NCBI GenBank assembly: GCA_964508365.1
Contig: CAZDTP010000025.1
Location: 1 to 50,013, forward strand
Reading direction: 5' to 3'
DNA: 50,013 nucleotides
DNA from: an uncultured archaeon
GTDB lineage: Archaea > Asgardarchaeota > Lokiarchaeia > Sigyniarchaeales > SOKP01
This document shows, one piece after another, positions 9,458 to 49,104 of the stretch; position 1 is the first letter of the stretch; each line of letters opens with the position of its first letter. The translations under genes were made by a program, and so were the position numbers. The notes beneath the pieces are model-generated. The model did no database searches, was not told where the DNA came from, and saw only the letters and a program-made list of their open reading frames with translations.

Positions 9458-9542
9458 GCGGGAATTGCCAAGTCTGGTCTACGGCGCTGGACTTAGAATC
9501 CAGTCTCAGAGGAGTTCGGGGGTTCAAATCCCTCTTCCCGCA
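9458..9542 (+). tRNA. tRNA-Leu(TAG), intronless, long variable arm
   Basis: Acceptor GCGGGAA/TTCCCGC, anticodon arm CTGGA-CTTAGAA-TCCAG, T-loop TTCAAAT. Confidence 0.97.
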
Positions 9543-9703: not shown

Positions 9704-9805
9704 GCTCTCGTAGTGTAGTCCGGCCAAACTTTCCAAAAAAGAAAGGGCTTGGCATGCTAGGCTTTCACCCTGGTGACCCGGGTTCGAATCCCGGCGAGAG
9801 CACCA
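9704..9805 (+). tRNA. tRNA-Glu(TTC) with a 24-nt D-loop intron at 21/22 (9728-9751); CCA encoded
   Basis: Anticodon loop CTTTCAC; BHB helix GGCC/GGCT, bulges AAA and TGG, outer helix CTTTC/GAAAG; removal restores D-stem GTGT/GCAT. Confidence 0.93.
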
Positions 9806-9846: not shown

Positions 9847-10027
9847 GCCTCGATAGCTCAGCTAGGTAGAGCTCCGTTTCGGTGTGCCTAAAGCACCCGG
9901 CTAAGGTAAAATCATTTTACCTCCGGAAGTTAACCGGGCGGTCGCATGTTCGATTTGTTGACTAGTTTCTGGGCAATACGAGAACCATAAAACTATCGAT
10001 TTCCGAAGTTTGGTTTAGCTCGGGGCG
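9847..10027 (+). tRNA. tRNA-Asn(GTT) with four introns: 9870-9891 (22/23), 9903-9928 (33/34), 9955-9984 (59/60), 9989-10017 (63/64)
   Basis: Each intron has a 4-bp helix with two 3-nt bulges; the spliced product is a 74-nt cloverleaf with stems GCCTCGA/TCGGGGC, GCTC/GAGC, CCCGG/CCGGG and GCATG/CATGC. Confidence 0.9.
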
Positions 10028-10083
10028 CTTTTATTCCTTTTTATCTAATCAAATAAGACGATCTCTATTTTTAATTCGAAAAA

Positions 10084-22232: not shown

Positions 22233-22355
22233 GCAGGGATAGCCAAGCGGTCAACGGCGGTGGACACAATCGAGAACACATAATAATGTAGTTCTTGAGC
22301 CACACTCAAGATCCATTGACATAGGTCTACAGGGGTTCAAATCCCCTTCCCTGCA
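22233..22355 (+). tRNA. tRNA-Leu(CAA) with a 40-nt intron at 32/33 (22266-22305)
   Basis: BHB helix GTGG/CCAC, bulges ACA and ACT; spliced anticodon arm GTGGA-CTCAAGA-TCCAT; acceptor GCAGGGA/TCCCTGC. Confidence 0.93.
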
Positions 22356-38498: not shown

Positions 38499-38639
38499 TA
38501 GCGGGGGTTCGAATCCCAATCTGCTGGAAACCAGCGATGCAAGATTTTTGAACGAACGACTCTGACGCTAGCTCGTAAGAGGGCAAGCGTTCTCAGGGTT
38601 ATGAGCCCTGCGGCATAAACCAGGCTAGCCCACCCCGCT
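38499..38639 (-). tRNA. Initiator tRNA-Met(CAT) with two introns: 46/47 (38560-38590, 31 nt) and 59/60 (38513-38546, 34 nt)
   Basis: A1:U72 pair and three G-C pairs in the anticodon stem; BHB CTGA/TCAG with bulges GAA/AGT, and TTCA/TGGG with bulges AAA/ATT; spliced T-stem GTTCG/CGAAC. Confidence 0.92.
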
Positions 38640-48314: not shown

Positions 48315-49104
48315 GATTAAACCTTTTTATTCTTTTTATTCTTTTTAATCTTTTAAATCCTTTAATTGTTGAACATTTCGTAAAATTTGAAATTATACTC
48401 CTATTCGAACCAAGTATCTTAGCATCCATTGACATATATTATACTCGTCTTATCTGGTTTCTTAATTTTTTATTTTTCCCCGTAATTACCCCTTAATACA
48501 ATCTCTCCTAAATATCCACCATAATTAAAATTTTATCGCTGCTTCATAGTAACCATTCGTAATATTTATAGGAATGCTCACACCCCCCTTTTATAGTTTA
48601 TGAATTCCGACCATAAAATTTTTATCTAACAAATTACTCTAATATTTCGTCGATGATTTTTTAATTTGTGATCGAAGTTTATCCCTATTACCATCGACAA
48701 GTTATTGGATGTGATAAATATCTCATCGAACCATGATGACATACCGCCAATAACGGACACCGGCCTTATGGAAGTATATCAGAAGAGACTACGGTCAAAA
48801 TGCATGATACTACAGGAAATAAGTGCCTAAAACGACCTATTCCTCGGTTGTTTCAGGATTCCGGACCAAGCACGAGCGTACGAACAAAAATATACAAAAC
48901 AAAAGAAACAGAAGAAATAAAAAAATACAAAAAAATAACAACGATTCGTGCTCAAAGGAACATACTCCCCATAAGTATGAAAATATACAATATTTTCGTC
49001 TCAATTTTAATTTCAATTTCAATTTCCAAAAATGTATCGTTTCCGAATACATAAGCCTTTTCACAAGCAATCTGAATCTTTCCTCAAGTAGACGCCAATA
49101 CGCC

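Follow-up and report, generated by a model that had tools for sequence, protein, structure and literature searches.

The closest described counterparts of the gene reported here come from other Asgard archaea. In three genomes of Atabeyarchaeia and Freyarchaeia, introns interrupt 92–95% of tRNA genes (Valentin-Alvarado et al. 2024, PMC11291895). Supplementary Data 4 of that work (PMC11291895) contains four-intron genes from both Freyarchaeia (Arg-TCT, Ile2-CAT and Leu-GAG) and Atabeyarchaeia-2 (Trp-CCA and Lys-TTT). More recently, 90 Asgard genomes were re-counted and up to five intervening sequences per gene were reported (Goswami et al., bioRxiv October 2026, 10.64898/2026.10.13.758758). The main text of this preprint mentions neither Lokiarchaeia nor Promethearchaeia. 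In both data sets, as in the genome studied here, the introns are short, mostly of a non-canonical bulge-helix-bulge (BHB) type, present in several copies per gene and often missed by standard finders, and positions in the D arm and the T arm are common.

Outside the Asgard archaea, heavy interruption of tRNA genes is best known from Thermoproteales, with at most three introns per tRNA gene (Sugahara et al. 2008; reviewed in PMC4033280). As at our locus, BHB introns of non-canonical type occupy many positions there, relaxed HBh′ motifs occur, and the splicing endonuclease (EndA) is (alpha-beta)2. Thermoproteales, however, are thermophiles of another phylum, and their tRNAs are rich in G+C. Sequence-related introns are found in different thermoproteal genes, whereas the 42 introns listed for the present genome, inspected by eye, show no obvious common sequence that would be a sign of transposition. 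A preferred order of intron removal was described for nuclear pre-tRNAs of the red alga Cyanidioschyzon merolae, in which several BHB introns leave in an order that follows motif stability, as seen by RT-PCR of the intermediates (PMC3728597). That system is eukaryotic, has no more than three introns per gene, and its motifs fold independently. Additionally, the same paper (PMC3728597) cites archaeal cases of nested introns, where one intron has to be removed before the motif of another can form.

Against this background, the four introns of the gene described below match the earlier four-intron Asgard reports. An earlier note on this DNA had supposed that four might match or exceed the described maximum; given the published four- and five-intron genes, the second half of this supposition does not hold, and the ceiling of three introns given there is the figure for Thermoproteales (PMC4033280). 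Published reports centre on Jordiarchaeia and Atabeyarchaeia, while this gene comes from the Promethearchaeia (Loki-type), in a genome of which four introns are the extreme. Its nearest named relatives are likewise Promethearchaeia and not members of the intron-rich classes described so far (Jordiarchaeia, Atabeyarchaeia). The shortest internal exons that can be derived from Supplementary Data 4 measure 7–9 nt, compared with 4 nt here, and Asn(GTT) has two introns in the Freyarchaeia and Atabeyarchaeia genomes, compared with four here (PMC11291895). The gene, from a class outside the published focus, has one exon of unusually small size and two splice motifs whose overlap is conserved. The current picture of archaeal tRNA splicing is unchanged by the locus. 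It offers a clean and comparatively well-supported case of heavy Asgard tRNA interruption in the Loki-type class, with two testable additions: a 4-nt exon, and overlapping intron recognition structures that are conserved across three intron lineages.

The window (the whole stretch of DNA that was analysed, 50,013 nt) is an entire contig (C25) of a 4.07-Mb assembly with 30% G+C. We are confident that it carries a single functional tRNA-Asn(GUU) gene of Promethearchaeia (Lokiarchaeia-type Asgard) with four BHB introns, which would be spliced by EndA and the ligase RtcB, intron 4 likely leaving first. The five exons are collinear on the plus strand, and the precursor spans 181 nt (Table 1). Once joined, they form a perfect cloverleaf of 74 nt, identified by ARAGORN as tRNA-Asn(gtt). 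Exon coordinates, intron lengths, the four intron positions and every helix and bulge assignment proposed in the earlier note proved exact, both by hand reading and by motif computation, and cutting after the second bulge base does yield the perfect cloverleaf that it had predicted. Its statement that the anticodon is formed only by splicing needs rewording: GTT is contiguous in exon 3 (9929–9931), and it is the loop and the surrounding stem that arise by splicing.

Table 1. Features of the interrupted tRNA-Asn gene and of other tRNA genes discussed in the text. Coordinates refer to the window unless another contig is named; intron sites follow Sprinzl numbering, except for tRNA-His, where they are sequence positions.
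Feature	Coordinates	Strand	Description
tRNA-Leu(TAG)	9458–9542	+	intron-free
tRNA-Glu(TTC)	9704–9802	+	25-nt D-arm intron 9728–9752, relaxed motif 3/0/4; CCA encoded 9803–9805
tRNA-Asn exon 1	9847–9869	+	23 nt; acceptor 5′ strand, U8-A9, D stem 5′ strand, D loop, G22
tRNA-Asn intron 1	9870–9891	+	22 nt; 22/23, D stem; central helix AGGT/GCCT; bulges AGA, AAA
tRNA-Asn exon 2	9892–9902	+	11 nt; positions 23–33: D stem 3′ strand, A26, anticodon stem 5′ strand, C32, U33
tRNA-Asn intron 2	9903–9928	+	26 nt; 33/34, immediately 5′ of the wobble base; central helix CCGG/CCGG; bulges CTA, AAG
tRNA-Asn exon 3	9929–9954	+	26 nt; anticodon GTT, anticodon stem 3′ strand, variable loop, T stem 5′ strand, T loop to U59
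tRNA-Asn intron 3	9955–9984	+	30 nt; 59/60, T loop; central helix TTCG/CGAG; bulges ATT, AAC; outer helix is the T stem
tRNA-Asn exon 4 (micro-exon CCAT)	9985–9988	+	4 nt; C60, C61, A62, U63
tRNA-Asn intron 4	9989–10017	+	29 nt; 63/64, T stem; central helix AACC/GGTT; bulges ATA, TAG; 5-bp inner hairpin
tRNA-Asn exon 5	10018–10027	+	10 nt; G64, C65, acceptor 3′ strand, discriminator G73; CCA not encoded
T-rich tract	10029–10043	+	read from sequence, directly 3′ of the discriminator
tRNA(CAT)	38499–38639	−	two introns, both with 4/4 central-helix pairs; exons 49, 13 and 14 nt
tRNA-His(GTG)	G000:C29:9344–9507	−	three non-canonical introns after sequence positions 15, 32 and 45; second most interrupted gene

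The spliced sequence has the stems of an ordinary tRNA: 7 acceptor pairs (one of them G-U), 4 in the D stem, 5 in the anticodon stem and 5 in the T stem. Read from this sequence, the anticodon GUU lies in a 7-nt loop with U33 and a purine at 37, and the discriminator is G73; our cloverleaf search scored all conserved positions. G73 is an identity element for asparagine. U8, A14, G18-G19, G53, U54-U55-C56, A58 and C61 are also in place; in the Sprinzl numbering that we adopted, the 9-nt D loop yields a position 17a. Exon 1 equals that of orthologues with fewer introns except for one D-loop base, and no CCAT other than exon 4 lies between exons 3 and 5. The exons reach 64% G+C and the introns 39%. 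We found neither separate loci nor a 3′ half upstream of the 5′ half, as would mark a split or a permuted tRNA gene. The T-rich tract behind the discriminator is, judging by its composition, likely an archaeal transcription stop.

Each intron was assessed against the standard BHB geometry, in which a 4-bp central helix (H) is accompanied by bulges of 3 nt, one per strand, and cleavage follows the second nucleotide of each bulge. In every intron, H is fully paired (4 of 4), the bulges measure 3 nt and at least one flanking helix has 2 pairs or more; the contiguous pairs of the flanking helices h/h′ number 1/2, 0/8, 3/5 and 4/5 in introns 1–4. Intron 1 is the weakest, of a relaxed HBh′ type with a weak outer helix and an inner hairpin of 5/6 pairs with one mismatch. 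Intron 2 has no outer helix (HBh′) and an 8-bp inner hairpin, and intron 4 shows the full hBHBh′ motif. A canonical motif (H 4/4 with a flanking helix) occurs at 0.6% of random boundary pairs with the same intron lengths within the window, and the chance of obtaining four out of four at fixed boundaries is about 1e-9. Folded with ViennaRNA, the full precursor has a minimum-energy structure that includes the H helices of introns 2 and 4 and lacks those of introns 1 and 3.

The same structure was recovered by a purpose-written de novo cloverleaf search in which jumps are permitted only at BHB-like sites. Its top solution in the window consists of exactly the five exons, with a score of 86 in the first scoring and 77 when jump scores were capped at zero; for comparison, the intron-free tRNA-Leu scored 69 and tRNA-Glu 73–74. 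In a reversed-sequence control of 1.63 Mb, no solution scored above 60. On the window, both the Rfam tRNA model and ARAGORN missed the Asn gene. Near the locus, both found the tRNA-Leu, and Rfam additionally found the intron-bearing tRNA-Glu.

The genome encodes the enzymes that such a gene would need. Two EndA paralogues were identified, each about 200 residues long and carrying both of the Pfam endonuclease domains. On inspection of the sequences, one keeps the catalytic Tyr, His and Lys and the other lacks the His. One complete and one His-less chain fit an (alpha-beta)2 enzyme. The RtcB ligase was recognized with 559 bits. Asgard EndA is described as (alpha-beta)2 with a loop that gives broad specificity and permits relaxed motifs (PMC5829648). 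By analogy, the host is probably equipped with a broad-specificity splicing endonuclease in addition to the RNA ligase.

We propose that the gene is transcribed as a precursor of about 181 nt carrying four short BHB introns, that a heterotetrameric (alpha-beta)2 EndA would cleave each of them after the second base of its 3-nt bulges, and that RtcB would ligate the exons. Intron 4 would go first, fusing the 4-nt exon to exon 5 and completing the T stem, which would then serve as the outer helix for intron 3.

The proposed order follows from an overlap between the two motifs. CGAG (9979–9982) pairs with TTCG in the central helix of intron 3 and also with CTCG (10019–10022) as the outer helix of intron 4. 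The following AA (9983–9984), together with CC of the micro-exon (9985–9986), makes up the H strand of intron 4, opposite GGTT (10012–10015). The last 6 bases of intron 3 thus belong to the motif of intron 4 and, because bases are shared, the two motifs cannot form together. Since the tail of intron 3 supplies half of the central helix and the whole outer helix of intron 4, intron 4 is most likely removed before intron 3. Such an order would be imposed by a structure with shared bases rather than by relative stability as in C. merolae, and here it is deduced from the sequence. With intron 4 first, the 4-nt exon would never be released as a free piece.

The overlap might also be without functional meaning, the two introns leaving in either order or together. 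This is a real possibility, which we nevertheless consider rather doubtful. According to ViennaRNA, the intron-4 conformer (−22.4 kcal/mol) and its alternative (−19.8 kcal/mol) differ by only 2.6 kcal/mol, and after the loss of intron 3 a relaxed motif of intron 4 remains (3 H pairs and the 5-bp hairpin), which an EndA of broad specificity may accept. On the other hand, the nine distinct four-intron alleles, which represent three intron-sequence lineages, all show better pairing of intron 4 with the tail of intron 3 than with the exon left after splicing: the central helix of intron 4 has 3–4 pairs in the unspliced transcript and 1–3 once intron 3 is gone. The outer helix of intron 3, in turn, grows from 3 to 5 bp after removal of intron 4. 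Relatives that possess only intron 4 of the two (L014) have GGAA in place of GGTT. Moreover, simultaneous cutting would free a 4-nt exon held by three base pairs only. We thus favour the removal of intron 4 before intron 3.

A bolder reading is that CCAT is among the shortest exons joined by archaeal tRNA splicing. In that case, its survival would depend entirely on a pairing that intron 4 has evolved with the tail of intron 3 and that would fix the order as 4 and then 3. We put this forward tentatively, leaning slightly towards doubt. If it is true, the alleles with 0, 1, 3 and 4 introns in one genus would form a natural series for the arrival of a BHB intron and the adaptation of its neighbour.

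The interrupted gene is the only source of tRNA-Asn that we found in the genome. The de novo search of the whole assembly returned 37 loci, about 33 of them credible, with exactly one tRNA-Asn, which is the most interrupted gene. The census was incomplete, as several tRNAs detected by Rfam, such as Gln, Cys and two Ala, were missed. A BLAST search with the mature sequence and a pattern search for GTT anticodon arms, each over 4.07 Mb, revealed no second copy and no exon-like piece in a tRNA context. The same question had been raised in the earlier note, and all three approaches give the same answer, for an assembly rated 100% complete. About 25 of the 33 credible genes have at least one intron and 13 have at least two, or about 1.3 introns per detected gene: four in Asn, three in His(GTG), two in each of eleven genes and one in each of thirteen. 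The host is therefore an Asgard archaeon with most of its tRNA genes interrupted, many of them by several non-canonical introns. The 42 introns have a median length of 30 nt, around which their lengths are tightly clustered. The T-loop site 59/60 is an intron hot spot (an intron at or beside it in 12–14 tRNA genes, with a last exon of 14–15 nt) and the canonical 37/38 site is rare.

These figures have a bearing on annotation. The only asparagine tRNA of the genome is invisible to Rfam and ARAGORN, which give 27 and 29 tRNA calls, respectively, and miss about one third of the expected set. Because of such losses, Asgard genomes look tRNA-deficient unless intron-aware methods are used. A second hidden gene in the window, a tRNA(CAT) on the opposite strand, was reported neither by Rfam at its gathering threshold nor by ARAGORN; A1:U72 and three G-C pairs at the base of the anticodon stem suggest that it may be the initiator.

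Some candidates from these searches were set aside. The intron mode of ARAGORN, applied genome-wide, was rejected as a source of isotypes: its ‘Asn(att)’ on C14 is Thr(tgt) in the census, its ‘Phe(aaa)’ on C11 is Ala(ggc), and its ‘Leu(caa)’ at window positions 22233–22355 is absent from the census. Solutions with five or six introns, in some orthologues and at genome loci on C16 (twice), C45 and C72, were likewise rejected. They scored 61–69, mostly near the control maximum of 60, and two of them overlap genes that ARAGORN calls intron-free.

To place the locus among its relatives, we relied on a DNA search of 40 of them, on spliced alignment and on de novo searches of all loci. Exon 3 has exact matches on 68 contigs, all of them Asgard, with one genome searched per prokaryotic species; most of these contigs are assigned by their labels to Promethearchaeota or Promethearchaeia (the Loki-type class). 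In the same genus, one orthologue has no intron (L016), one has a single intron at 59/60 (L015), seven have three (L006–L012) and six have four (L002–L005, L013 and L014). Over all loci, the confident de novo solutions contain no intron in 7 cases, one in 17, two in 4, three in 24 and four in 11. Within one genus the intron count thus varies between 0 and 4, which supports the view that introns were gained or lost recently and repeatedly.

The two exons of L015 correspond to exons 1+2+3 and 4+5 of our gene. As these exons are identical, the sequence predicted for the spliced tRNA can be read as contiguous DNA in a sister species. Comparison with L002 reveals one exon difference in 74 bases; introns 1 and 2 differ in both length and sequence, and introns 3 and 4 at few bases. 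At the site of intron 1, the orthologues carry homologous introns whose 3′ end, GTGTGCC(T/A)AA, is conserved in more than 20 of them. The 3′ end CCGGAA, made up of the H strand and the bulge, is constant among the introns at 33/34, whose hairpins, of 4–11 bp, are unrelated in sequence. This is the pattern expected from selection on structure and not on sequence. In L013, the exon strand reads TCGG rather than CCGG, and the intron compensates with CCGA.

The micro-exon CCAT also occurs in nine distinct four-intron alleles of other species. Among Promethearchaeia, four-intron tRNA-Asn genes were found, for example, in JABCSY010000012.1 (HM4_B22), JAHQWH010000034.1 (ABR02) and loci L025, L032, L033, L071, L079 and L081. 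These orthologues share the same four positions, CCAT and the overlap of the intron 3 and 4 motifs; they differ in the sequences of the introns, and identity over the locus to the nearest relatives is about 80%.

It is worth asking whether the gene could instead be a decaying or silent pseudogene, with asparagine codons read by a tRNA-Asn that is unassembled or that is split or permuted elsewhere. The metagenome assembly is a draft in 149 contigs with an estimated contamination of 3.65%, which means that another Asn gene could lie in unassembled DNA, and the omissions of our census point the same way. We nevertheless consider this explanation very improbable. Relative to L002 and to the one-intron orthologue, the exons are strongly constrained while the introns diverge. 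The same interrupted architecture, in a syntenic place, is the only Asn gene recovered from many independent metagenome-assembled genomes. Moreover, across the 4.07 Mb no further exon-like piece and no further GTT anticodon arm lies in a tRNA context, and the four splice motifs are all intact. All of this argues for a functional gene.

Least probable of all, to the point of being hardly credible, is a real gene with another intron count or other boundaries, for example with 9955–10017 as one unit or with alternative sites that would give a different T arm: 5–7 nearby boundary pairs around introns 3 and 4 pass the motif test, and the search offers exon 4 as 9987–9989 or 9974–9980 with scores of 68 and 70, but these alternatives lie 7–9 points lower and give T loops and stems unlike those of every orthologue, whereas the parse of Table 1 reproduces exactly the T arm of the intron-free and one-intron orthologues, and relatives with only the 59/60 or only the 63/64 intron show that two separate introns are involved.

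Further variation was seen among the orthologues. In L013, of the same genus (genome G008; positions ~1455–1542 of the locus), two D-arm introns surround a 4-nt micro-exon, GTAG. Tetranucleotide exons in this genus are thus not limited to the T arm. Eight tRNA-Asn orthologues from other Asgard metagenome-assembled genomes (L022, L029, L036, L045, L050, L054, L055 and L086) carry a 60-nt insert at 63/64. Its outer boundaries form no BHB motif, and its first half resembles the usual 30-nt intron of this site. The insert may represent two tandem or nested introns, in which case L086 would have five. The spliced aligner additionally produced chains of tiny exons at the unrelated loci L017–L020 and in the acceptor stem of L013; these were rejected, and L013 was re-read by hand.

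In the window, an archaeal 23S rRNA gene begins at 49092 and is truncated by the end of the contig (49092–50013). The Rfam scan revealed no 16S rRNA gene in the 49 kb upstream of it, and the rRNA genes may be unlinked.

The tRNA-Asn gene itself lies behind those of tRNA-Leu and tRNA-Glu, all three on one strand and within 570 nt. A TATA-like TTAATATA is found 6–13 nt upstream of the mature 5′ end of tRNA-Asn; we discarded it as the promoter of a separate transcript, for which it is too near. The three genes may be co-transcribed, or tRNA-Asn may have a promoter of its own. The tRNA-Glu gene encodes its CCA end, and the adjoining tRNA-Asn gene does not.
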